Of a stretch of DNA of 64,000 nt, positions 44,025 through 64,000 are shown one piece after another (the stretch's first letter is position 1; every line of letters starts with the position of its first letter). The notes under the pieces are model-generated. The model did no database searches and was not told where the DNA came from. It saw only the letters and a list, made by a program, of their open reading frames with translations. Source of the stretch: Escherichia coli (lineage in GTDB: Bacteria > Pseudomonadota > Gammaproteobacteria > Enterobacterales > Enterobacteriaceae); assembly GCF_003019035.1 (NCBI RefSeq), contig NZ_CP027447.1; one strand, 5' to 3'. Both the position numbers and the translations under genes were made by a program.

Positions 44025-44629
44025 CAGAACAACAACGTCGCGAACTGGACTGGGAAAAAACCGACGGACTGCTGCCGGTGATTGTGCAACATGCGGTATC
44101 CGGCGAAGTGTTAATGCTGGGCTATATGAATCCAGAAGCCTTAGACAAAACCCTAGAAAGCGGCAAAGTCACCTTCTTCTCGCGCACTAAACAGCGACTG
44201 TGGACCAAAGGCGAAACGTCGGGCAATTTCCTCAACGTAGTGAGTATTGCGCCGGACTGCGACAACGACACGTTACTGGTGCTGGCGAATCCCATCGGGC
44301 CAACCTGCCACAAAGGCACCAGTAGCTGCTTCGGCAACACCGCTCACCAGTGGCTGTTCCTGTATCAACTGGAACAACTGCTCGCCGAACGTAAATCTGC
44401 CGACCCGAAAACCTCTTACACAGCCAAACTGTATGCCAGCGGCACCAAGCGCATTGCGCAAAAAGTGGGCGAAGAAGGCGTAGAAACCGCACTGGCAGCA
44501 ACGGTACATGACCGCTTTGAGCTGACCAACGAGGCATCTGACTTGATGTATCACCTGCTGGTATTGTTGCAGGATCAGGATCTGGATTTAACGACGGTAA
44601 TTGAGAACCTGCGTAAACGGCATCAGTGA
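44018..44629 (+). CDS. hisI: Bifunctional phosphoribosyl-AMP cyclohydrolase / phosphoribosyl-ATP pyrophosphatase
   Basis: 203-aa ORF, last gene of the his operon. Confidence 0.93.
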
Positions 44630-44681
44630 GTTGCGGGGTAAGCGGATGCGATGTTGTTGTCGCATCCGGCAAAATAAATAT

Positions 44682-44706
44682 CCTCCGGCATAGCCGGAGG
44701 TTTTTC
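44682..44706 (+). terminator. his operon rho-independent terminator
   Basis: cctccggc-ata-gccggagg followed by ttttt. Confidence 0.8.
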
Positions 44707-44709
44707 AAA

Positions 44710-45383
44710 TGCGCCTATAAGGCTCTCTTACCAGCCGCGCCCTAACAGGCGCACACGATCTGACATTTGCATCCAACTTCGTTACTTACGGCCCGTAAAC
44801 GGGCTGCCCGGATAGGGAATCGATAACTGCTCTCCCATTTTATCCTCTTCAAGCTGGTGCTTTATGTAATCCTGTATCTTCGCCGTGTTCTTACCCACCG
44901 TATCGACGTAATACCCTCTGCACCAGAACTCCCTGTTCCTGTATTTGAATTTCAAATCAACAAACTGCTCGTAAAGCATTAGACTGCTTTTCCCTTTCAG
45001 ATATCCCATAAAGCCGGATACGCTCATTTTGGGCGGGATCTCCACAAGCATATGGATATGATCTGCACAGCATTCAGCTTCCAGAATCCGTACACTTTTC
45101 CACTCACACAGCTTTCTCAAAATACAGCCTATTGCTCTACGCTTCTCTCTGTAGAACACCTGTCTTCGGTATTTTGGCGCAAATACTATGTGATATTTAC
45201 AGTTCCATCGGGTGTGCGCTAAGCTCTTTTCGTTCCCCATTGGGACCCCCTTTTGATTTCTTGTTTGACACTTGCAGTTGCCAGACCGCAAGGTGTTTTA
45301 ACAAATCAAAAGGGGTTTTAATAACTGGCTCAAAGCTGAAAGCTTTCCGGAACCCCCAGCCTAGCTGGGGGTTTTCTGTGCAC
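44710..45383 (-). mobile_element. IS200-type insertion sequence (IS200/IS605 family); boundaries approximate (about +/-40 bp)
   Basis: Contains a tnpA almost identical to my memory of Salmonella IS200 TnpA, plus the characteristic upstream stem-loops (cccccagctaggctggggg; RBS-occluding hairpin). No terminal inverted repeats are expected for this family. Confidence 0.8.
44782..45237 (-). CDS. tnpA: IS200 transposase TnpA (HUH / Y1 family)
   Basis: MGNEKSLAHTRWNCKYHIVFAPKYRRQVFY…CCADHIHMLVEIPPKMSVSGFMGYLKGKSS…; HxH motif present; ORF track begins at an upstream in-frame Met. Confidence 0.9.
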   Translation of the reverse strand, partial: GNEKSLAHTRWNCKYHIVFAPKYRRQVFYREKRRAIGCILRKLCEWKSVRILEAECCADHIHMLVEIPPKMSVSGFMGYLKGKSSLMLYEQFVDLKFKYRNREFWCRGYYVDTVGKNTAKIQDYIKHQLEEDKMGEQLSIPYPGSPFTGRK

Positions 45384-45415
45384 AAAAAAACGGGCAAGGT
45401 GTCACCACCCTGCCC
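45383..45415 (-). terminator. Candidate wzzB terminator
   Basis: Minus-strand hairpin gggcagggtggtgacaccttgccc followed by gttttttt, just after the wzzB stop. Confidence 0.5.
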
Positions 45416-45437
45416 ATTTTCTTTAAAACCGAAAAGA

Positions 45438-46421
45438 TTACTTCACGTTGTAATTACGCAGAGCGTTACGCCCCAACACAATCCCCGCGCCCACCATACC
45501 GCCCAGCAGCACTGCCAGAATCAAGGTGATTGCTTTCTTCGGGCTATCGCGACGAATTGGCAGTGTGGGTTTCATAACGTAACGGTAGGCATGAATATCA
45601 AGATCATCAACCTTCAGACTTTCGATATCCAGCAGGTTTTGACGAGTCTGATAATAGTTTGGCGAGAACACAAGCGGACGAGTCGCTTCGTGCTTAATCA
45701 TCGACCCCAGTGCTTCGCTACCTAACAAAAGCAACGTGTCCTGAGTAATATTTTCACCAGTCTGCTGAATCTGCGGCTTTGTTACCTGCGCCTGATTCGC
45801 ATACTGCAACGCTTCCTGAATCTGGCGGATACGCAGCGTTTTTTGCTCCTGAGCCACCACTTCCTGAGTTTTCAGGGAATCCTGCAATGTTTTCATGCCC
45901 AACGCAATATTATCCTTCAGGTCCTTTTCCAGCTCTTCATTCACTCGGTCATCAACTTGTTGAATGTATTCAGCCAGCTTTTTCTGTGCATCCGCCGCCG
46001 TTTTCCCAACATAAGAAACAGCTAACGGTAACGGCTGGTTTTTAACAGCGGGCTCGATGGTCAGTTTTTCGCGTTCTTCCTGATTATCCAGCGTTTCCGC
46101 TAATGCAGAGAAAGCGGAACTGAAGCGACCAATCAACGCCTCCTGTAAATCAGCTACTTTTGGCGCAGCCTGGCCATAAATTACATTCATGGCGTTGTTA
46201 TAGCCGGCAATTTGCCCCACATCAGGTTGAGTGACAATGGCTGTTGATGTCCATTGCTCTTTCGCTACTGCCAGGTATCCAATAGCCAACACGATAGCCA
46301 CAATGACTGTGGCGATAATGGTCATCTTACCGCGCCACAGTTGTACCAGTAAATCAATTAAATCAATCTGTTCCGGGTCATTGTTGTGCCCAGAAATATT
46401 ATTATTTTCAACTTTCATCAT
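45438..46421 (-). CDS. wzzB: O-antigen chain-length determinant (polysaccharide co-polymerase)
   Basis: 327-aa ORF with two TM segments flanking a periplasmic coiled-coil region; very similar to my memory of E. coli WzzB (Cld). Confidence 0.9.
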   Translation of the reverse strand: MMKVENNNISGHNNDPEQIDLIDLLVQLWRGKMTIIATVIVAIVLAIGYLAVAKEQWTSTAIVTQPDVGQIAGYNNAMNVIYGQAAPKVADLQEALIGRFSSAFSALAETLDNQEEREKLTIEPAVKNQPLPLAVSYVGKTAADAQKKLAEYIQQVDDRVNEELEKDLKDNIALGMKTLQDSLKTQEVVAQEQKTLRIRQIQEALQYANQAQVTKPQIQQTGENITQDTLLLLGSEALGSMIKHEATRPLVFSPNYYQTRQNLLDIESLKVDDLDIHAYRYVMKPTLPIRRDSPKKAITLILAVLLGGMVGAGIVLGRNALRNYNVK

Positions 46422-51750: not shown

Positions 51751-53156
51751 TAGTATCCAACTCCAGAAGAAGAAACTCTTATAACATCATCCTCTTCCAA
51801 GTAGACTCCTGATCTAACCTCAATTATTTCAAGTGGGATCTTGCCAGGATTTTCAATGGCATGTGGAACACCAACAGGTATATATGTTGATTCATTTTCT
51901 GAAACAAGATAAGTTTTCTCCTCAAGATGAACTTTAGCTGTCCCCGAGACAACAATCCAATGTTCAGTACGATGGTAATGGATCTGCTTAGCGGTAATGT
52001 GACCCGGTAATACAATCACATGTTTAACCTGAAAGCGTTGCCCTTCAGCTATAGTGTCATGACTGCCCCAAGGACGAAAAATTTCCCGATGTTGTAAATA
52101 TTCTGTTCGATTATTCTTTTTAAGCTGAGCTACGATGTTTTTAACTTGCTGAACTTTATCTTTATGAGCAACTAATACTGCATCTTTCGTTTCAACGACA
52201 ACCAAATCCTTTACGCCCACGGCCCCAATAAGTCTATGCTGCGAATAAAGATAACTATCTGTAGCATCCTCAACCAAAACATCACCACGAATGGCATTGC
52301 CGCTTTGGTCTTTTGAACTTATTTCCCACAGCGCAGACCATGACCCAACATCACTCCATTGCGCATCCAATGGTACGACCACAGCTTCAGCTGTTTTTTC
52401 CATAACGGCATAGTCGATTGACTCTTCAGGGCAGCAAGAAAAAGAAGAGTTATCCAAGCGGATAAAATCTAAATCTTGAGTCGAGGAAGCTAAGGATTGC
52501 TGACAACTCTCTAGAATATCTGGACGGAATTTTTTTAGTTCATCGATGAATACAGATGCTCTGAACATAAACATTCCACTATTCCAAAGATAACCGCCAT
52601 CTGACAAATACCGCTGAGCTAATTCTAGCTCTGGCTTTTCAACAAAAGCTGCAACTTTATAACCTTGCCCACTAAGTGGATCACCTGACTTAATATAGCC
52701 ATACCCTGTCTCTGGAGCTGTTGGAACGATGCCAAATGTGACCAACTTACCTTGCTGCGCAAAGTCCTTCGCGGCCAAAACTGCTGTAATGAAACTATTC
52801 TCATCCTGAATTTCATGGTCAGCCGCAAGAACCAAAAGTATAGGATCCTCTCCACTTGCCGTTGCCTGAAGCGCTGCAAGGGCTACAGCAGGTGCCGTAT
52901 TGCGCCCAACAGGCTCAAGCAAAATCCCACTATGCTTTAAACCAACTTTACGTAATTGTTCAGCAACAATGAAACGATGTGATTCATTACAAATGATCAA
53001 AGCAGGATTGTGTTCAATCTTTTCTAGCCGTCGCAAAGTCTCTTGCAACATAGTTAAGCGGCTATTTAAAGACAGAAATTGTTTCGGATAAAGTGTACGT
53101 GAAAGAGGCCATAATCTGGTACCAGATCCACCGGCCATGACAACGGGAAGTAGCAT
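51750..53156 (-). CDS. manC: Mannose-1-phosphate guanylyltransferase (with C-terminal cupin domain)
   Basis: 468-aa ORF ([28 protein letters not shown]…). Confidence 0.88.
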   Translation of the reverse strand: MLLPVVMAGGSGTRLWPLSRTLYPKQFLSLNSRLTMLQETLRRLEKIEHNPALIICNESHRFIVAEQLRKVGLKHSGILLEPVGRNTAPAVALAALQATASGEDPILLVLAADHEIQDENSFITAVLAAKDFAQQGKLVTFGIVPTAPETGYGYIKSGDPLSGQGYKVAAFVEKPELELAQRYLSDGGYLWNSGMFMFRASVFIDELKKFRPDILESCQQSLASSTQDLDFIRLDNSSFSCCPEESIDYAVMEKTAEAVVVPLDAQWSDVGSWSALWEISSKDQSGNAIRGDVLVEDATDSYLYSQHRLIGAVGVKDLVVVETKDAVLVAHKDKVQQVKNIVAQLKKNNRTEYLQHREIFRPWGSHDTIAEGQRFQVKHVIVLPGHITAKQIHYHRTEHWIVVSGTAKVHLEEKTYLVSENESTYIPVGVPHAIENPGKIPLEIIEVRSGVYLEEDDVIRVSSSGVGY

Positions 53157-53161
53157 ATCTA

Positions 53162-53623
53162 TTACCTTGATATAAAATAATTTTTGGTATATTGATGAAC
53201 TGTAGTGCTATTAAGCAACGTTACTACATCAAACCACTTGTAGGAATTATGCTGAATCGTTGGTAGGCGAAGTTGCTGCGGATTAATTTGAATTTCATAT
53301 CCATGCACTACGTAGTGTGTAGAAAAATCTACTTCAGAAAAATTGTCATTGTAAAAGTGTTCATACACACCAAGAAATATGGCCTCACCAAGACTAGTTT
53401 GAACGCCTAACTCTTCAAATGTGATCCTTTTAAAAGCATCCTCGAATGACTCGTCCTTAAAAATTCGCCCTCCAGGCACAAACCAATAATTTTTTGCGGG
53501 GCGATTCAGGCGCTGCCCAAGCAGCGCCTCTCCTTTATCGTTTCTAATTACGAGGTCAATCGAGATTAGAGGAGTATGCTTGACTATTGTTTTAAATAAC
53601 TCATATTCTAATCTCTTTTTCAT
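53162..53623 (-). CDS. gmm: GDP-mannose mannosyl hydrolase (NUDIX)
   Basis: 153-aa NUDIX-family ORF adjacent to fcl and gmd. Confidence 0.75.
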   Translation of the reverse strand: MKKRLEYELFKTIVKHTPLISIDLVIRNDKGEALLGQRLNRPAKNYWFVPGGRIFKDESFEDAFKRITFEELGVQTSLGEAIFLGVYEHFYNDNFSEVDFSTHYVVHGYEIQINPQQLRLPTIQHNSYKWFDVVTLLNSTTVHQYTKNYFISR

Positions 53624-53625
53624 AA

Positions 53626-54591
53626 CTATCCCCGAAAAGAATCAATATTCTCAAGAAACCATTTATATGTTAATGATAGACCTTCATGTAAATTATAGCG
53701 ATGTTGCCAGCCCAAGTTTTTGAGTCGGGTAACGTCCATAAGTTTTCGCGGGGTGCCATCTGGTTTGGTCGCGTCAAAAACAATTTTTCCTTGATAACCC
53801 ACTACAGAAGCCATTGTTTCAGCCATTTCACGTATAGAACAATCCACCCCCGTACCTACATTAATATGAGATAACATTGGTTGTGTATTTTGTTGATAAA
53901 TTGCGTCCTCTAACTCCATCACATGAACCGAGGCAGCAGCCATATCATCAACATATAAAAACTCACGCATCGGCATTCCCGTGCCCCAGACAATAACTTC
54001 TTGTGCACCACTTTCTTTTGCCTCATGGAATCTACGCATAAGCGCCGGAATAACATGGGAGTTTTCAGGATGGAAGTTATCATTCGAACCATAAAGATTA
54101 GTAGGCATTACACTTCTATAATCGCGACCATATTGACGATTATAAGACTCACATAATTTTATGCCCGCAATCTTAGCAATTGCGTATGGCTCATTAGTTG
54201 GCTCAAGTATGCCCGTCAAAAGTGCAGACTCTTTCATCGGCTGCTCAGCAAATTTTGGATAAATACAGCTAGAGCCTAAAAAAAGTAATTTTTGAATTCC
54301 AACCTTGTGAGCTGAATGTATAATATTACTCTCAATCATGAGATTCTGATAAATGAATTCTGCTGGAAATGTATTATTGGCATAAATACCACCTACTTTT
54401 GCCGCAGCAAGATAAACCTGATCAACCCTCTCTCTCTCAAAAAATGCCTCAACATCCTTCTGCACGGTCAGATCGAGTTCTTTGTGTGTTTTAACCACTA
54501 ACTCGATATCATCACGCAGCGATAATTGTCGGCAAATAGCAGAGCCAACCATGCCCTGGTGCCCAGCAACATATACTCTTTTCTTTATCAT
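53626..54591 (-). CDS. fcl: GDP-L-fucose synthase (GDP-4-keto-6-deoxy-D-mannose 3,5-epimerase / 4-reductase)
   Basis: 321-aa SDR ORF ([23 protein letters not shown]…) directly downstream of gmd. Confidence 0.85.
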
Positions 54592-54594
54592 GTA

Positions 54595-55728
54595 TTAACG
54601 CTCCAGAGAAACCGAAACATCATAACCATGGCTTTTAAGAAGTGCATGTTGTTTCGCTTTTAACAAATCGCTAGCAACCATTTCTGCACACATCTCTTCA
54701 ACTGTAATCTCTGGTTCCCAGCCTAATAGATTTTTTGCTTTTGCAGGGTCACCTAAGAGTGTTTCAACTTCAGCAGGACGGAAATAACGAGGATCAACCC
54801 GAACTATAACGTCTCCAACATTTACACCAATAGCACAATCGGAAATTTTATTAACTACTGTGGCTATCTCATCTACACCCTCACCAGAGAATTCAAGTTC
54901 AAGTCCGACTTCTTTAGCAGCCATACGGACAAATTCACGCACAGATATCTGTTTACCTGTGGCAATGACAAAATCCTCTGGATGATCTTGCTGAAGCATC
55001 ATCCATTGCATGCGAACATAATCTTTAGCGTGTCCCCAGTCACGCAACGAATCCAGATTACCCAAATATAAGCATTGTTCGATCCCCTGAGAAATATTAG
55101 CTATTGCACGAGTAATTTTACGGGTAACAAAAGTTTCTCCACGGCGTGGCGATTCATGGTTAAAAAGAATACCATTACAAGCATATATACCATAAGATTC
55201 ACGGTAGTTAACTGTTATCCAGTAAGCATACATCTTAGCTACAGCATAAGGCGAACGCGGGTAGAATGGAGTTGTTTCACGCTGAGGAATCTCTTGCACT
55301 AAACCAAAAAGTTCTGAAGTAGATGCTTGATAGAAACGTGTTTTTTTCTCCAGCCCACAGATTCGTATTGCTTCTAATAAACGTAATGTCCCTATTGCAT
55401 CTACATCTGCTGTATATTCTGGTGACTCGAATGACACTGCGACATGGGATTGTGCACCAAGGTTATAAATTTCATCCGGTTGAATTTCTTGGATTAAACG
55501 GATCAGATTCGATGTATCTGTTAAATCCCCATAGTGTAAAATAAAATTAGGCTCATCAACGAATCGTGATTGATATATATGATCAATTCTATCAGTGTTA
55601 AATGACGATGCTCGGCGTTTTATACCATGTACTTCATAACCTTTTTCAATAAGAAATTCTGCAAGATATGAACCATCTTGTCCAGTTACGCCTGTGATAA
55701 ATGCAACTTTTTTATTCATTTTAATCAT
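54595..55728 (-). CDS. gmd: GDP-mannose 4,6-dehydratase
   Basis: 372-377 aa ORF (…[20 protein letters not shown]…[18 protein letters not shown]…); start is either MIKMNKK or MNKK. Confidence 0.9.
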
Positions 55729-55737
55729 GTTATGTTC

Positions 55738-56769
55738 CTAAATATTCAACTCATTATAAACTTTAATCGTTTCATTAACACATTTTGACCATGAAAATTT
55801 TTGCGCCTGCAGTAAACCTCTTTCGATCATAACATTTCTTTTTAAATTAACTAATTCTAAAGCTTCTTTTAACGTAAACTCATTAATATCATCAATATAA
55901 ATAGGCGCATTCCCCCCTACTTCCGGCAACGAGGATGTGTTTGCACAAATAACTGGACATCCGGCCTGCATAGCTTCTAGGACAGGTATTCCAAACCCCT
56001 CATAACTGGAAGGGTAAACAAGTGCATATGCAGTATTATACTGTATATTTAAATCTTCATTACTCAAAAATGTAAAATGTTCATATCTATTTTTTAAATA
56101 TTTTTCAAGGAGTTCTCTTTCATATTTTTTAAGCGAGCCTCCGCCTACAATTGTAAGCTTTAAGCCATGTAATTTCCCTACAGCTTTGACTGCAAGAACG
56201 AAATTTTTATAACCTTCTCTGGCACCGACAAACAAAACTGAATTATTTACTCTCATATCAGACATGTTAGAAATATGTTTATATGATGGGGATACACCAT
56301 TATAAATCACTCTAATTTTATCTTCGCTAATTGGACAGTACTTAAGTAAATCTCTAGCAGTGTTGTTTGAAATACAAATTACGATATCACTATTCTTGAT
56401 AGCATGATATTTTTGAAGAGAATGAATAAATTTTGACATTCCTCCCCTGTATTTTTCATAGGTGAAATCATGAACAGTTGTAACATTTTTCACATTCAAA
56501 TTAGGACTTTTATGAACTCGATAATAACTTGAGTGTAAAACCCTAGTTTTAATATCACTTACATTTCTATATCTTTCTAAAATTCTTGGCTTACGATATT
56601 GCAACTTTAAGTCGCTTGTATCAAACTCAAATTCTTTATTTTTATACAATAGAATTTCAGCTTGGTAATTTGATTTCACCATTCCTTGGATCAACTCATT
56701 AAAGTATACACTTATTCCACCAAATGATTGGAGATTATAAATAATCCCATCGATAGTTACCATTATCAT
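55738..56769 (-). CDS. Family-4 (GT-B, retaining) glycosyltransferase
   Basis: 343-aa ORF with C-terminal EX7E-type motif (…YPSSYEGFGIPVLEAMQAGCPVI…). Confidence 0.8.
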   Translation of the reverse strand: MIMVTIDGIIYNLQSFGGISVYFNELIQGMVKSNYQAEILLYKNKEFEFDTSDLKLQYRKPRILERYRNVSDIKTRVLHSSYYRVHKSPNLNVKNVTTVHDFTYEKYRGGMSKFIHSLQKYHAIKNSDIVICISNNTARDLLKYCPISEDKIRVIYNGVSPSYKHISNMSDMRVNNSVLFVGAREGYKNFVLAVKAVGKLHGLKLTIVGGGSLKKYERELLEKYLKNRYEHFTFLSNEDLNIQYNTAYALVYPSSYEGFGIPVLEAMQAGCPVICANTSSLPEVGGNAPIYIDDINEFTLKEALELVNLKRNVMIERGLLQAQKFSWSKCVNETIKVYNELNI

Positions 56770-58022
56770 CGCCCTCGCAAGGTAATACGTTCGATTAGAA
56801 CGAACAATATCAAAAAGAAGATCAGTAACAATACATATGCCGGCCCAGCAAAATAAGTTCCAAATGAAGGTGAAATGAGAATTATAGAAAGCAAAAAAAA
56901 GGATGCAGAGTTCGTAATTACTTTTGCATTAAACATTTTAAGCTTAGCAAAAATATAGCCATAAAAGATATTCATAGGTGAAAGAAAAGTTAAAATGATC
57001 AGTCCAACATATCCATAATCAACAAAATTATCCATCCCTTTTGAAAAAGCAGGTGTATGCCCCGACTCTGCAGCTCCTGGATAATAGATTTCATTTACAT
57101 GCAGAAATCCATATACAAAAGGTTTATCAGGAAACAAACCTCTCGGTATATAAGACCAAAATTGGCTGAAATAGACTGTGCCATTGAAAAACTTAACCAC
57201 ACCTTTATCAATATCTTGTAGCAAATAAATACTGTTTTGATACTGGTCAAAATAAGACAATACTACATCGACATTCATATTTCCAATAGCTAAAAATAAA
57301 TTATAGAGAATGGCACACGCTGCCAGGGGTGTAACTAAAATCAGGCCAAATTTTAGAAATCTAGATTTATTAAGACTTAACACTGCAAGATAAAAAATCG
57401 CAAATGAAAGAATAAAGGTTTTCGATCCAAGAAAAAAAACCAAGGTACAATAGAATATCGCGCATAAAAATAATTTTATTTCCGAGCGTAAAGCCAACGC
57501 CCTGGAAAAATAAGATACCGAAAGCATACTTAAAGAAAAGGCATATAAAACACCATTACCTTCTCGATAGTTTTGATAACCATCCCTGGGATTCGTCAAC
57601 CATCCAGAAATACCTATTTCTGACTTTGAAGAAAGAAGAACAAATAATGTAATAAACAGAACCAATGTAATATTTGATATTCTTTTTAATTTTGTATGCG
57701 AAATTAAGCAAGTTAAATAGATCTCTCTATTTTTGAATGCTATATTAAAAATAAAATAAAAGAAAATTATAGATAAAACACCCACAAAAGAGTATATGTT
57801 ATATATAAATAAAGCCTCATTATAATATTGATTTAAAGCAAAGTCTGAACCGTAGAAAAGAGGAGCCAAAATATTTTCCAATAGAAAAACCGGAAATAAA
57901 ATAATGGCGTAAATGGTAAAGGGATTGATAATTGTAAGTCTTAGCGTTTTCGTCGCTAATAAAGAAAAAGAATAATATAGTACTATAGCTAGTGTAACAT
58001 TTAAACAATATATTATTACCAC
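56766..58022 (-). CDS. wzy: O-antigen polymerase
   Basis: 418-aa, highly hydrophobic multi-TM ORF with a large loop, AT-rich, no recognisable enzyme motif; typical of Wzy inside an O-antigen cluster. Confidence 0.65.
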   Translation of the reverse strand: MVIIYCLNVTLAIVLYYSFSLLATKTLRLTIINPFTIYAIILFPVFLLENILAPLFYGSDFALNQYYNEALFIYNIYSFVGVLSIIFFYFIFNIAFKNREIYLTCLISHTKLKRISNITLVLFITLFVLLSSKSEIGISGWLTNPRDGYQNYREGNGVLYAFSLSMLSVSYFSRALALRSEIKLFLCAIFYCTLVFFLGSKTFILSFAIFYLAVLSLNKSRFLKFGLILVTPLAACAILYNLFLAIGNMNVDVVLSYFDQYQNSIYLLQDIDKGVVKFFNGTVYFSQFWSYIPRGLFPDKPFVYGFLHVNEIYYPGAAESGHTPAFSKGMDNFVDYGYVGLIILTFLSPMNIFYGYIFAKLKMFNAKVITNSASFFLLSIILISPSFGTYFAGPAYVLLLIFFLILFVLIERITLRGR

Positions 58023-58032
58023 ATCCTCCCCC

Positions 58033-58842
58033 CTATCTTAAACCGAATAATTTGCGCTTAATTGATTTTGTTTTTTGATATAATGCTTGAGGAACAATCA
58101 CTTTAAATAAAACTTGCAATGAATTATAGACAGCAAATTTTATTTTATATGATAAGGGCATATGAATATTATTTTTAGCTAGAATATAAGCAATTTCTTT
58201 CTTGACTAATTTTTTATTAGATTCATTTGAACTTACACCCGAAGCATCCATTATGGATACAGGAAAATTCACATAATGCATCGTAGATGGATCTATTGTT
58301 CTTATCATAAAATCACTATCAGCAGCAATTTTTAGTGTTGTATCAAAGCGATTAGCATTATCTTTAAAAAAGCTAGAATGCTGGAAAGTACCCTGATGAG
58401 GAGGAAGTGAAGGCCGACCACATTCCCACTTTTTCTTTATTTTTCCGTAAACTCCAACTATATTATCTTCATCACTAAAATATACATCACCATATATAGT
58501 TGTTGCACTCATATTTTCGTGAATGGCATTTGCTATTTTTGAAAGAGTATTATTTTCATAGAATGTATCGCCAGCTCCCATAAAAATAACCCAATCGCCA
58601 TTTATGTGAGGAAGAGCTTTATTCCAAGCGTCGTATATTCCTTGATCAGATTCGCATAAAAAATAATCTATAATATCAATATATCTATAAATATATTCTA
58701 GTGTTGATTTGTTAGAGTTGCCGTCTATAACAATCCATTGAATATTACAATAATTTTGATTTTTAATAGATTCCGCAGTCTTGCAGAAATCTTCCTCACA
58801 ATTATACGTCGATGTTATTATAGTAATCTGTAAGCCATTCAT
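58033..58842 (-). CDS. Family-2 glycosyltransferase (GT-A fold)
   Basis: 269-aa ORF with ITIITSTYNCEEDF…VIDGNSNKST…DQGIYDAWNKA…; paralogous to the 51004..51750 ORF. Confidence 0.75.
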   Translation of the reverse strand: MNGLQITIITSTYNCEEDFCKTAESIKNQNYCNIQWIVIDGNSNKSTLEYIYRYIDIIDYFLCESDQGIYDAWNKALPHINGDWVIFMGAGDTFYENNTLSKIANAIHENMSATTIYGDVYFSDEDNIVGVYGKIKKKWECGRPSLPPHQGTFQHSSFFKDNANRFDTTLKIAADSDFMIRTIDPSTMHYVNFPVSIMDASGVSSNESNKKLVKKEIAYILAKNNIHMPLSYKIKFAVYNSLQVLFKVIVPQALYQKTKSIKRKLFGLR

Positions 58843-58848
58843 CTTAAC

Positions 58849-59559
58849 TCACTTATTTTTCATGGCAATATATTTTAATCTTAATTCTTTAATTAAGGTC
58901 TTTACTTTACTATCAGTGGAATACTCAATATTAAACGTGCCAGAGACTCCTCTTATTTTGGGAATAGTTGTTCCAATAACTCCTTTTAATTTATTATTTT
59001 TAATTTGCTCAAAAAAAATGTGTTCTAAATAAACACCATCAAGGTCACGCACAGATTTATAAGAATTAGCAAAAAAGTCCCAATATATTTTTTTATTTAC
59101 AACATAAAACCTTGTATCAATCATATTTTCATTCAGAAAAGGAACTGGTATAAAAAAAGCTTTACCATTGAATGCTTTTATACATTGCTTATAATTATCG
59201 ACGTATAGTTTTGATGTTATTTTTGCGAAACTTTCAGCATTAGACAAATAGCGACTATTCATTAATGCATACTCAATTATTTCACCCTCTCCGTAACCTT
59301 TACCATAAGATTTAACACTTTCTGTATCATTTTTGAAATGTATTATCTCGATCGAATCTTTATTAAGTATTTGTTTATCATTATGAATATCTTTCGTCAA
59401 ATCATAATCACTACCATCACATATTACTATAGAATCAGCATTCTTAGACAATTCTCTTATCGCTTTCAATGTATGTAATAATCTTGAATTTTCATCAGAA
59501 AGATTTGTAAGAGGAGCATTAGGTGAGATACAAGAAGTCACTAATACTGGGATTTTCAT
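58849..59559 (-). CDS. Hypothetical protein within the O-antigen cluster (possible novel glycosyltransferase or modifying enzyme)
   Basis: About 236 aa from MKIPVLVTSCISPNAPLT… (ORF track starts at an upstream Met that would overlap wzx); no motif I can assign; soluble-looking. Confidence 0.5.
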   Translation of the reverse strand: MKIPVLVTSCISPNAPLTNLSDENSRLLHTLKAIRELSKNADSIVICDGSDYDLTKDIHNDKQILNKDSIEIIHFKNDTESVKSYGKGYGEGEIIEYALMNSRYLSNAESFAKITSKLYVDNYKQCIKAFNGKAFFIPVPFLNENMIDTRFYVVNKKIYWDFFANSYKSVRDLDGVYLEHIFFEQIKNNKLKGVIGTTIPKIRGVSGTFNIEYSTDSKVKTLIKELRLKYIAMKNK

Positions 59560-60800
59560 TTTTTCTTTTCCAGCCTCAACGAAATTAACATTAGTATAAA
59601 ATAATCGGCGGTGACTCTTGCGCTCCAGGCATAAGCCACACCTGCTACAGAAAAATACATAATTGAAAAATATAAAACTAGCAGATATGGAATACATTCA
59701 ACAAGATGAATGAGACCCGTAATTTTTGCATAACCTTTCGATTGGATTTGAGCAAATGGAACTTGAGCAAGAGAGTTGAATACAAAACCTACTAATAATA
59801 TTTGAAATATATAAGGACTCTCAGCGCTATATTGTTTTCCAAGCCATAAAGTTATAATATCACTAGCCTTCAAAGAAAACATAATAGATATAACTATACT
59901 AGTTACACTTATTAATAACGTAGCCTCTTTTATTATTTTTTTTCGCTCATTTTTTGTATTATTCTTGCATAGAGCAGGAAAAATTGTCCTTGCTATAGTT
60001 GTCGGTAATATAAGTAACTTTGAAATTGCATCCGCAGGAGCAATATATAACGAAGCTTTAGCAGGGCCAACTGCATTTGATAAGATAAATCGGTCAATAT
60101 TTGTAAGCAATGGGTTAATTATACTACTAATACTCGCCCATCCTCCAAAACTTAATAGTGCTTTTGTTTTACTTAGACTAAAATCCATTGTAAGCCTATT
60201 ATTTCTAAAAACAAAGAACACGCTTAAAAGAGCACCAGTTATTCTCGCAATCACCAATCCCAAAGTAGCATTAAGCAAACCAACATTTCCATGAATGAAA
60301 ATAACTGGTAGTAGCGCAGTTAACACACCTGTAATTGTTTTTTGTACATTTAATAATTTGAATTTTTCATATCCTTCTAATATCCCCCAACAAACCATAT
60401 TAAGAAGATAAAATGGCAGACAGTAGGATAAAACACTTATAGCATATGCAACACTTTCAGTTTGTTCCGGACCACTAATTAAGGATGCAATCTTATGGTT
60501 GCAGTAATAAAAAATTACGGATACAACAACACCAATAGATAATGTTAATAAAAATGATGTTGTAATTATTTGACTGATTGCCTTTTTGTCGTTTTTATTT
60601 AATGATATTTCACGTACAACGGCTCGCGAAAGTCCGAGATCAAATATACTTGCGTATCCAACTATTGTAAAAAACATTAAAAAAAAGCCAAAGTTAGTTA
60701 TTCCTAACTCCCTTGCCAAATACCCCATCGCAGGTATTGACAATAAAGTTGGGATTGCATACCCAGCCAAATTTATTAAACTATTTATTTTAATACTCAT
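59556..60800 (-). CDS. wzx: O-antigen flippase (MOP / polysaccharide-biosynthesis family)
   Basis: 414-aa ORF with about 12 predicted TM segments; position next to the rml genes is typical. Confidence 0.75.
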   Translation of the reverse strand: MSIKINSLINLAGYAIPTLLSIPAMGYLARELGITNFGFFLMFFTIVGYASIFDLGLSRAVVREISLNKNDKKAISQIITTSFLLTLSIGVVVSVIFYYCNHKIASLISGPEQTESVAYAISVLSYCLPFYLLNMVCWGILEGYEKFKLLNVQKTITGVLTALLPVIFIHGNVGLLNATLGLVIARITGALLSVFFVFRNNRLTMDFSLSKTKALLSFGGWASISSIINPLLTNIDRFILSNAVGPAKASLYIAPADAISKLLILPTTIARTIFPALCKNNTKNERKKIIKEATLLISVTSIVISIMFSLKASDIITLWLGKQYSAESPYIFQILLVGFVFNSLAQVPFAQIQSKGYAKITGLIHLVECIPYLLVLYFSIMYFSVAGVAYAWSARVTADYFILMLISLRLEKKK

Positions 60801-60816
60801 TTTTAATTATCTTTTG

Positions 60817-61359
60817 TCAATAATTATTTTGTATAAATGGAGTACCCAAACAATCTTTTTGTGATATAAGAGGTTCTTTGTATAATTGCCAATCTATGTT
60901 AAGTAAAGCATCATTCCAAATAATACATTTCTCATGTTCTTTTGAGTAAAAATTATTGGTCTTATACAATATTTCTGAACCTTCTTCTTTTACATAAAAA
61001 CCATGCGCAAACCCTTCCGGGATCCACAACTGGCGCTTATTCTCAGCAGACAAATTCACTCCAACCCATTTCCCAAATGTAGGTGACGATTTACGAATAT
61101 CAACCGCAACATCAAAAACTTCACCAACAACACAGCGCACCAGTTTTCCTTGAGCATAAGGTTCTAACTGATAATGCAACCCTCGTAAAACACCTTTTCT
61201 GGACTTAGAATGATTGTCCTGAACAAACTCAACCTTACGCCCTACAACCTCTTCGAAAACTTTCTGATTAAAGCTTTCCATAAAGAAGCCACGTTCATCC
61301 CCAAAAACTTTTGGTTCAAAAATCAGCACATCAGGAATTTCAGTTTTAATTACGTTCAT
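60817..61359 (-). CDS. rmlC: dTDP-4-dehydrorhamnose 3,5-epimerase
   Basis: 180-aa ORF (MNVIKTEIPDVLIFEPKVFGDERGFFMESFNQKVFEE…). Confidence 0.9.
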   Translation of the reverse strand: MNVIKTEIPDVLIFEPKVFGDERGFFMESFNQKVFEEVVGRKVEFVQDNHSKSRKGVLRGLHYQLEPYAQGKLVRCVVGEVFDVAVDIRKSSPTFGKWVGVNLSAENKRQLWIPEGFAHGFYVKEEGSEILYKTNNFYSKEHEKCIIWNDALLNIDWQLYKEPLISQKDCLGTPFIQNNY

Positions 61360-61363
61360 CTTA

Positions 61364-62242
61364 TTAATAACCTTTAATCATTTTGAGCAGATACTGACCA
61401 TAAGCATTTTTCTTCAACGGTTCGGCTAATACTTTTACCTGCTCAGCATCAATAAACCCTTTACGATAAGCAATTTCTTCCGGACAGGAAACCTTTAGTC
61501 CCTGGCGCTCTTCAATGGTGGCAATGAAGTTGCTTGCTTCAATAAGACTTTGATGCGTCCCTGTATCCAGCCATGCATAGCCACGCCCCATCATAGCGAC
61601 AGACAAACGTCCTTGTTCCATATAAATACGGTTAATATCGGTAATTTCCAGTTCACCTCGGGCAGAAGGCTTAAGGTTTTTCGCCATTTCCACAACGTCA
61701 TTGTCATAGAAATAAAGCCCAGTAACCGCATAGTTACTTTTTGGTTCCAGCGGTTTTTCTTCCAGGCTAATTGCAGTACCGTTATTATCAAACTCCACGA
61801 CACCATAGCGTTCAGGATCATTAACGTGATAAGCAAATACCGTTGCACCGATTTCTTTGTTAACAGCAGCTTCCATTAATTTTGGCAAGTCGTGTCCATA
61901 GAAGATATTATCACCAAGCACAAGTGCACAATCATCACCTCCAATAAAGTCTTCACCAATGATAAACGCTTGCGCCAGGCCATCCGGACTCGGTTGTACT
62001 TTATACTGTAGATTAAGCCCCCATTGGCTCCCGTCCCCCAACAAATGTTGGAAACGCGGTGTATCCTGTGGAGTACTGATAATAAGAATATCGCGAATAC
62101 CCGCTAACATAAGCGTTGAAAGCGGATAATAAATCATAGGTTTATCATAAATCGGCAACAGTTGTTTACTCACGGCCATAGTCACAGGATAAAGACGAGT
62201 GCCGGAACCACCAGCTAAAATAATACCTTTACGCGTTTTCAT
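61364..62242 (-). CDS. rmlA: Glucose-1-phosphate thymidylyltransferase
   Basis: 292-aa ORF ([60 protein letters not shown]…). Confidence 0.93.
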
Positions 62243-62300
62243 TTCACCATTCCTTTTAATTCATCCCGCTCTGGCATCATAAGCGAGATGCAAAAATTTG

Positions 62301-63200
62301 TTAAATTGCCGTAGTCGTAAATAATTCGTTGAGCATTCGTTTCACACCCACCTGCCAGTCAGGCAAGACAAGCGCAAAGTTCTGCTGAAACTTTTCTGTA
62401 TTGAGGCGAGAGTTATGGGGTCGACGGGCTGGTGTGGGATAGGCCGTTGTTGGCACGGCGTTAAGTTTGTTAAGAGCAAGGTTAATCCCTGCTTTGCGCG
62501 CTTCTTCAAATACCAGAGCGGCATAATCGTGCCAGGTTGTTGTACCGCCAGCAACCAGATGGTACAAACCAGCAACTTCTGGTTTGTCTACTGCTACGCG
62601 AATGGCATGAGCGGTGCAATCAGCCAGCAATTCGGCACCTGTTGGTGCGCCAAACTGATCGTTTATCACAGCCAGTTCTTCGCGCTCTTTTGCCAGACGC
62701 AACATTGTTTTGGCGAAGTTATTTCCTTTACCTGCATATACCCAGCTGGTACGGAAAATAATATGCTTCGCGCAATGTTTCTGTAACGCTTTTTCTCCGG
62801 CTAGTTTAGTTTCACCATAAACATTCAAAGGTGCTGTAGCATCCGTCTCCTGCCACGGTATTTCACCGGTTCCCGGAAATACGTAGTCAGTAGAGTAGTG
62901 AATAACCCAAGCGCCGACTTCATTAGCTGCTTTTGCAATCGCTTCGACACTTGTCGCGTTAAGTAATTGTGCAAATTCCGGTTCTGATTCCGCTTTGTCT
63001 ACTGCAGTGTGAGCAGCCGCATTAACAATAACATCAGGGCGAATTTTTTTGACAGTTTCAGCTACACCTTCGGGATTACTAAAATCACCACAATAATCAG
63101 TGGAGTGAACATCAAGAGCAATCAGATTACCCAGCGGTGCCAGAGCACGCTGCAGTTCCCAACCTACCTGCCCTGTTTTGCCGAATAGGAGGATATTCAT
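62301..63200 (-). CDS. rmlD: dTDP-4-dehydrorhamnose reductase
   Basis: 299-aa ORF ([33 protein letters not shown]…). Confidence 0.92.
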   Translation of the reverse strand: MNILLFGKTGQVGWELQRALAPLGNLIALDVHSTDYCGDFSNPEGVAETVKKIRPDVIVNAAAHTAVDKAESEPEFAQLLNATSVEAIAKAANEVGAWVIHYSTDYVFPGTGEIPWQETDATAPLNVYGETKLAGEKALQKHCAKHIIFRTSWVYAGKGNNFAKTMLRLAKEREELAVINDQFGAPTGAELLADCTAHAIRVAVDKPEVAGLYHLVAGGTTTWHDYAALVFEEARKAGINLALNKLNAVPTTAYPTPARRPHNSRLNTEKFQQNFALVLPDWQVGVKRMLNELFTTTAI

Positions 63201-64000
63201 TACTGGCGGCCCTCATAGTTCTGTTCAATCCACGACTGATAAGCACCGCTTTTCACATTCTCAACCCAATTTGTATTAGCCAGATACCATTCCACCGTTT
63301 TACGAATACCGCTCTCAAACGTTTCTTGCGGTTTCCAGCCCAATTCGCGGCTAATTTTATCGGCATCAATTGCATAACGGCGATCATGCCCTGGGCGATC
63401 AGCAACATAGGTAATTTGCTCACGATAAGATTTCTCTTTCGGGACTATCTCATCCAACAAATCACAAATAGTGAACACTACGTCGATGTTTTTCTTTTCG
63501 TTGTGTCCACCAATGTTATAAGTTTCGCCTGCTTTACCTTCGGTTACGACGGTATATAACGCTCGAGCATGATCCTCTACATACAACCAGTCGCGGATCT
63601 GATCTCCTTTGCCATAAATAGGTAATGCCTTACCTTCCAGTGCATTAAGAATAACCAGTGGAATAAGCTTTTCCGGGAAATGATAAGGACCATAGTTGTT
63701 CGAGCAATTAGTCACAATGGTCGGTAAACCATAAGTACGTTTCCATGCGCGAACCAAATGATCGCTGGAAGCTTTAGAAGCAGAATATGGACTACTTGGC
63801 GCGTATGCTGTCGTTTCCGTAAATAGCGGCAACGTTTCATTGCTATTTACTTCATCCGGATGGGGTAAGTCACCATACACCTCATCAGTAGAAATATGAT
63901 GAAAACGGAAGTTTTTTTTCTTTTCATCATCCAGACCAGACCAATAATTGCGCGCCGCTTCTAAAAGAACATAAGTACCCACAATATTGGTTTCAATAAA
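63200..64000 (-). CDS. rmlB: dTDP-glucose 4,6-dehydratase, C-terminal part (5' end beyond window)
   Basis: Reverse frame is open to the window edge; translation (…[28 protein letters not shown]…[33 protein letters not shown]…) is RmlB/RfbB-like; stop overlaps the rmlD start. Confidence 0.9.

Follow-up and report, generated by a model that had tools for sequence, protein, structure and literature searches.

A full-length, apparently functional IS200C element at the convergent his/wzzB terminator of Escherichia coli

The analysed stretch of DNA, referred to as the window, comprises 64,000 nucleotides of Escherichia coli contig NZ_CP027447.1 (assembly GCF_003019035.1). In the window, the stop codons of hisI(E) (44629) and wzzB (45438) delimit an interval of 808 bp; the same interval of K-12 is ~95 bp. 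The order at this locus is hisI, a REP-like palindrome, an insertion sequence lying right end to left end, the native terminator and wzzB (Table 1). Positions 44672-45384 very probably hold a single IS200C copy that is full-length and apparently functional; IS200C is a tnpA-only element of the IS200 group in the IS200/IS605 family. In a megablast search of 5426 complete E. coli genomes, the 808-bp interval was 100% identical in three, where the RefSeq label reads 'IS200/IS605-like element IS200C family transposase'; the name IS200C rests on this annotation. Related sequence was detected in 3929 of the 5426 genomes, at up to 35-36 places per genome. The first-pass annotation of the window had claimed a complete IS200-type element between hisI and wzzB, and the profile, Rfam and RefSeq matches confirmed it. 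The element and its location are already known: IS200C is annotated in RefSeq genomes and the site is a typical one.

Table 1. Positions of the features determined in the hisI-wzzB interval of the window.
Feature	Position	Strand	Description
REP-like palindrome	44643-44670	.	Flank between the hisI stop and the right end of the element; found by folding; also in empty sites and K-12
Complete IS200C element	44672-45384	minus	713 bp, without target-site duplication
Terminal ATATTTATTT	44672-44681	minus	After the right-end hairpin
Right-end hairpin CCTCCGGC-TAT-GCCGGAGG	44682-44700	minus	IS nt 685-703
tnpA	44782-45240	minus	152-aa Y1/HUH transposase
Shine-Dalgarno (SD) AAGGGGGT	45245-45252	minus	IS nt 133-140, paired within the 5'UTR stem
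tnpA 5'UTR	45250-45373	minus	Match to Rfam STnc490 (RF01405)
Left-end hairpin AACCCCCAGC-TAG-GCTGGGGGTT	45351-45373	minus	IS nt 12-34
Native terminator T-tracts	45385-45390 (wzzB-sense); 45417-45424 (his-sense)		
Native convergent his/wzzB terminator hairpin CGGGCAAGGTG-TCAC-CACCCTGCCC	45391-45415	.	Flank, outside the element

The tnpA product matched Pfam PF01797 (Y1_Tnp) with 128 bits (cut-off 23, E=2.5e-37) over profile positions 2-121 of 121, and the equivalog model NCBIfam NF033573 (transpos_IS200) with 145 bits compared with a cut-off of 55. The solved homologues 2ec2, 2f4f, 2a6m and 2vjv were recovered at E 1e-22 to 1e-18, and the structure matches spanned the TnpA proteins of Sulfolobus, IS608 and ISDra2 (E 1e-22 to 1e-16). 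The motifs H61-I-H63, Y125 and Q129, the Gln being four residues past the Tyr, were found; the Y125F mutant of Salmonella IS200 is catalytically dead (PMC4513863). The gene had been described as intact and as encoding an HxH motif, and this held: the protein has 152 residues with HIH at 61-63, and no frameshift or truncation was found in tnpA. One family-matched ORF was present in the 713 bp, without tnpB, which is the tnpA-only organization of the IS200 group. The remaining listed ORFs that overlap it are either short or extend beyond its ends.

Several alternative frames were rejected. A TTG-started tnpA of 169 aa, extending to 45291, was discarded because the ATG at 45240 follows the Shine-Dalgarno sequence and all the RefSeq copies have 152 aa. 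The plus-strand ORFs 44857-44982 (41 aa) and 45052-45222 (56 aa) over the element, as well as 45132-45725 (197 aa, antisense into wzzB), come from a mechanical list and were unsupported.

When the hisI-wzzB interval was compared across E. coli, both filled and empty sites were found and the ends of the element were placed at 44672 and 45384. The segment is common to the IS200C copies at yfeD-gltX, yidB-gyrB, yghA-exbD and sbcB-plaP, the flanks of which diverge in the alignment, and every aligned E. coli copy, the other hisI-wzzB copies included, is 713 bp between identical ends. The alignment identity started at 44672 and ended at 45384/45385. In the tnpA orientation, the terminus ...GGATATTTATTT of the right end is followed by T, G, A or C depending on the locus, and the right end is fixed at 44672 because this next base varies. 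The left end is known to within 1 nt since it is situated in a T-run. The empty sites (K-12, CFSAN061769, 504239) read REP-...CATCCGGC-A7-CGGGCAAGGTGTCACCACCCTGCCC, i.e. GGC-A7-CGGGC, and the filled site has 1 A left of the element and 6 A right of it. Thus, excising the 713 bp restores the empty site exactly, without a duplication. Insertion 3' to a short specific target without duplication is a trait of the IS200 group.

The window had earlier been read as carrying an element at 44710-45383, situated between a his terminator at 44682-44705 and wzzB. The left end of that span was off by 1 bp and essentially stands, whereas its right end was 38 bp short, the hairpin included. In favour of the earlier reading, the hairpin with T5 at 44682-44705 lies directly 3' of hisI, reads CCTCCGGC-ATA-GCCGGAGG plus TTTTT on the plus strand and is scored as terminator-like there; in the consensus scan, the right-end hairpin was terminator-like on both strands. 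However, the same 38 bp accompany the element at yfeD-gltX, yidB-gyrB, yghA-exbD and sbcB-plaP, and each copy at an unrelated locus has the hairpin. The empty hisI-wzzB sites lack these 38 bp; there, A7 and the hairpin of 45391-45415 come directly after hisI-REP. The earlier reading is almost certainly wrong with regard to the terminator: the hairpin at 44682-44705 belongs to the element, and the element lies between hisI with its REP and the native bidirectional terminator.

The native terminator directly follows REP-A7 in the empty sites. It was terminator-like on the minus strand, and its wzzB-sense fold was -28.2 kcal/mol. Carlomagno et al. are said to have reported in 1985 that the his operon ends in a convergent Rho-independent terminator common with the downstream gene. 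Base 45416, which connects the native stem to the his-sense T-tract, varies: the window has A, K-12 has T, and both CFSAN061769 and 504239 have G.

Other variation was observed around the site. Between hisI and the A-tract, one REP-like palindrome is present in the window and K-12, and three in 14EC020 and 2017-02-2CC; since the REP number differs among strains, the hisI-wzzB spacer is polymorphic independently of the element. In E. coli Z1323CEC0015, a frameshifted partial transposase of IS1397 (IS3 family), a second insertion sequence at this site, directly adjoins the right end of IS200C at hisI-wzzB and takes the spot of the REP/hisI flank of other strains. In CFSAN061769, which has an empty site, the annotation gives wzzB as a pseudogene that contains an internal stop. 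Across positions 52001-64000 of the window, where a series of minus-strand ORFs is found, the GC content drops to 0.30-0.41, with its minimum at 56-60 kb. This low-GC run lies downstream of genes aligned with ugd and gndA (RefSeq) and is consistent with an O-antigen gene cluster gained by horizontal transfer.

Both ends of the element carry subterminal hairpins in place of terminal inverted repeats, as in the IS200 group. The two hairpins have a common 8-bp stem, CCCCCAGC-TAG-GCTGGGGG in the left one, with two compensatory pair changes. Following the IS608 paradigm, the paired stems fit putative end hairpins recognised by TnpA. The left-end hairpin was found once in the window (chance expectation, 0 matches), and nt 1-50 folded with -19 kcal/mol. 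In Salmonella IS200, the left-end hairpin is a bidirectional terminator shielding tnpA (PMC4513863); by analogy, the hairpin of the window is also the predicted end hairpin bound by TnpA.

The tnpA 5'UTR matched Rfam STnc490 over model positions 1-124 of 124 with 146.4 bits (gathering score 56, E=2e-31), and the fold of nt 40-160 was -40.4 kcal/mol. The left-end hairpin and the 5'UTR stem correspond to the stem-loops that had been noticed upstream of tnpA. The Shine-Dalgarno sequence is identical to the one quoted for IS200 (PMC4513863). In Salmonella, the antisense sRNA art200 acts on the tnpA 5'UTR (PMC4513863, PMC5435999), and a counterpart in the window would by analogy come from the opposite (plus) strand. 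The Rfam STnc490 match is on the tnpA-sense strand, whereas PMC4513863 has STnc490/art200 antisense to the 5'UTR; art200 and the Rfam family may differ in strand. No sigma-70-like promoter was detected in 44400-45700 with a consensus scan, which agrees with the weak and undefined tnpA promoter of the literature and is otherwise uninformative. In Salmonella, tnpA is restrained by the weak promoter, the left-end terminator, sequestration of the Shine-Dalgarno sequence, and art200 together with Hfq (PMC4513863). On these grounds, the expression of tnpA should be minimal here. The Rfam candidates Ysr202 (30 bits, gathering score 315), psRNA14 (25 and 60) and mir-7578 (21 and 60) were far below the threshold and were rejected as generic hairpin matches; they overlie the REP, the hairpin of the right end or the native terminator.

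Compared with other E. coli IS200C, the element has the same 713 bp as 8 other extracted copies, differing at 0-11 of 713 positions; like published IS200C it is tnpA-only, with a T-rich target and no duplication, and such copies have been annotated as 707-714 bp within T-rich sites (PMC6963479). Two substitutions, one synonymous and G94V (GGT to GTT), are private to the window copy in the comparison with those 8 copies. The solved archaeal homologues have Q or P at residue 94, a variable position. It does not appear to be an obviously critical position, and an effect of G94V on activity may exist.

The founding member, IS200 of Salmonella enterica, is 707 bp, compared with 713 bp of the window element, which represents the E. 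coli lineage. The layouts are alike: when 45384 is taken as nt 1, the numbering of the features agrees with published Salmonella IS200, which has the terminator hairpin at nt 12-34, the SD stem at ~nt 69-138, the SD sequence AAGGGGGU, a 152-aa TnpA with Y125, and the art200/STnc490 region. IS1541 of Y. pestis and Y. pseudotuberculosis shares ~87% nucleotide identity over the full 713 bp (determined with Y. pestis copies) and has the same left- and right-end hairpins; its left end likewise follows a hairpin and a T-run. The left-end tip differs, being GTGCCCAG in IS1541 and GTGCACAG in the window IS200C, and in Y. pestis IS1541 reaches a high copy number and forms tandem dimers.

IS608 (H. pylori) and ISDra2 (D. 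radiodurans) encode homologous Y1/HUH TnpA proteins (2a6m, 2vjv, 2xm3; E 1e-18 to 1e-16) and resemble the window element in having subterminal hairpins without inverted repeats and in inserting 3' to a short target without duplication. In contrast to IS200C, they carry tnpB and a guide RNA, and their targets are TTAC and TTGAT instead of a T-run. The RAYT/TnpA-REP proteins have a distantly related Y1 fold, and the window element likewise adjoins a REP. Membership in this group was rejected, as the NCBIfam REP_Tyr_transpos score was 31.5 compared with a cut-off of 80; the gene has the hairpins of the element on its sides rather than inverted REPs, and the REP is found on one side only and also in the empty sites.

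In the tnpA orientation, the left flank reads GGGCAGGGTGGTGACACCTTGCCC-GTTTTTT, followed by TGTGCAC of the element. The left end was located directly after a terminator hairpin and T-tract in 9/9 E. coli copies (e.g. gltX, gyrB, exbD, plaP). A scan of representative genomes for the exact 21-nt left-end hairpin CCCCCAGCTAGGCTGGGGGTT resulted in at least 120 stretches. Among the matches listed, 97 of the 117 distinct left-end flanks, taken as the 40 nt before the element, contained a hairpin followed by a T-run, versus 0 of 117 controls taken 300 nt further upstream. The mean MFE of these 117 listed flanks was -18.7 kcal/mol, compared with -7.0 kcal/mol of the controls. The consensus of positions -6 to -1 among the matches listed was TTTTWT, with T in 113/117 at -1 and in 112/117 at -4. 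The terminator pattern is real, extends beyond this locus and is at least partly known. A 1998 paper in J Bacteriol on the insertion sites of IS1541 reportedly described terminator-like hairpins beside the insertions. The reviews checked in the literature search for target data of IS200 gave nothing specific, and the search yielded no paper mentioning IS200 together with wzzB. In a preprint, the excess of terminators just upstream was strongest for IS200/IS605 (10.1101/2025.07.22.666184).

The matches listed include assemblies of Yersinia, Vibrio, Brenneria, Dickeya, Edwardsiella, Pluralibacter, Oxalobacter and Mailhella/Desulfovibrio, and also of Bacillota, Peptococcaceae, Saccharibacteria and Elusimicrobiaceae. 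The presence of CCCCCAGCTAGGCTGGGGGTT in distant phyla could be due to a wide horizontal spread of the clade or to mis-binning of MAGs. In MAG contigs, the match was mostly less than ~100 nt from the contig ends. The left-end tips varied by lineage (GTGAAACG, GGTTAAAAG, GTATGAAG).

By analogy with IS608 and ISDra2, IS200C would move as single-stranded DNA. The Y1/HUH TnpA would bind the subterminal hairpins at both ends and then cut at the ends, after which the left end would be joined 3' to a T-rich target, leaving the target unduplicated. At this locus, the target was the A7/T7 tract between the REP 3' of hisI and the convergent his/wzzB terminator hairpin, and the left end now abuts the terminator T-tract in the wzzB sense, the usual address of the clade. 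In the model of replication-coupled, single-stranded transposition for the IS200/IS605 family, the top strand is expected on the lagging-strand template. The GC skew of the plus strand was negative in 13/16 blocks of the window, and in K-12 the locus maps to 2.097 Mb of the plus strand. Judged from the skew and this position, the top strand of the element appears to lie on the lagging-strand template, which agrees with the model and is a hint of strand-specific transposition.

The insertion left the native convergent terminator of his and wzzB intact and 713 bp farther from hisI. The wzzB transcript presumably still terminates at its own hairpin and 7 T, six of them native and one the first base of the element. 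Because this hairpin and the 7-T tract are kept, an effect on chain length is not expected, in accordance with the first-pass annotation, which had correctly placed the element 3' of wzzB. The his transcripts would now first meet the right-end hairpin with T5, a predicted terminator by the consensus scan. Any his read-through would be antisense to tnpA and would then encounter two further terminators, the bidirectional one of the left end and the native one. As a corollary of the terminator mimicry, the right-end hairpin may be where his transcripts of the window strain first terminate.

Among the 5426 complete E. coli genomes, the right-junction query detected the insertion in 26 and the left-junction query in 30, and ~3726 genomes had an uninterrupted hisI-wzzB site. 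Over 713 positions, the window copy had 11 differences from the his-site copies of 14EC020 and Z1323 and 6 from that of EE72d. Three differences were counted between the window copy and a yfeD-gltX copy, and one between the his-site copy of EE72d and a yghA-exbD copy. The haplotype table covers the copies with matched exact end anchors and thereby leaves out those of ST2747 and ATCC 25922. The flanks of the his-site copies also differ, with one versus three REPs, different wzzB alleles, and IS1397 beside the element in one strain. Compared at the sequence level, the hisI-wzzB T-tract has probably been hit repeatedly, or gene conversion has occurred between copies. The element had been proposed as a useful lineage marker next to the O-antigen region, and repeated insertion or gene conversion weakens this simple value: at least three haplotypes of the element occupy the exact site, each nearer to copies elsewhere. 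The proposed role as a recombination anchor cannot apply where the genome has a single copy, such as SCU-301; this genome has one IS200C place, and the two others that match the window fully over the 808 bp have three.

Two other histories of the copy were considered. All the hisI-wzzB copies could go back to a single ancient insertion that was passed on vertically or through recombination of the his/O-antigen region, which would make the element a clean marker. The identical position and orientation in all six his-site copies with junctions read, and the occurrence of the insertion in only about 26-30 of 5426 genomes, are in favour of it, as is the his/O-antigen region being a recombination hot spot. 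However, a single origin is rather unlikely, as the his-site copies differ mutually at 6-11 of 713 positions and are nearer to copies at other loci, their flank haplotypes differ in REP number and wzzB alleles, and a site-specific target in a terminator T-tract makes recurrence plausible. Still less probable is that the copy is structurally complete but an immobile fossil, owing to G94V or to the dormancy of IS200, and serves as a passive marker. It is true that G94V and the synonymous change are unique to the window lineage among 9 E. coli haplotypes, that the best-matching genome has a single copy, and that transposition of IS200 is notoriously rare (PMC4513863). On the other hand, the copy retains an intact reading frame, its catalytic residues and the hairpins of both ends, the residue affected by G94V is a variable one in the solved homologues, and the 35-36 IS200C places of some E. 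coli genomes indicate that the family is active in the species. The preferred reading remains a complete and apparently functional IS200C copy at a site that has probably been used more than once.

The pattern of the insertion sites could be the result of the survival of harmless insertions. It is also conceivable, though we regard it as the less probable case, that elements of the IS200 group actively pick intrinsic terminators, beyond mere survival there. A terminator, with its GC-rich hairpin and T-run, would mimic the element's own right end with its hairpin and ATATTTATTT, and once a terminator hairpin is extruded in single-stranded DNA, TnpA could dock there and attach the left end a few nucleotides past it. 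In Yersinia pestis NCTC5923, IS1541 occurs as head-to-tail tandem copies ~710 bp apart, one copy's left end coming directly after its neighbour's right end (junction ...CCGGAGGATATTTA-TTGTGCCCAG). These tandems suggest that the right end, a hairpin with a T-rich tail, resembles the preferred target.

For typing, IS200C at this site is rare (~0.5% of complete genomes) and probably recurrent, and its use as a marker of single origin needs a phylogeny. For annotation, the ends of IS200-group elements are easily mis-called, as the right-end hairpin mimics the terminator of the upstream operon. Active targeting of terminators, if true, would explain the 97 of 117 flanks among the matches listed, the dimers of IS1541 and the reuse of the hisI-wzzB site.
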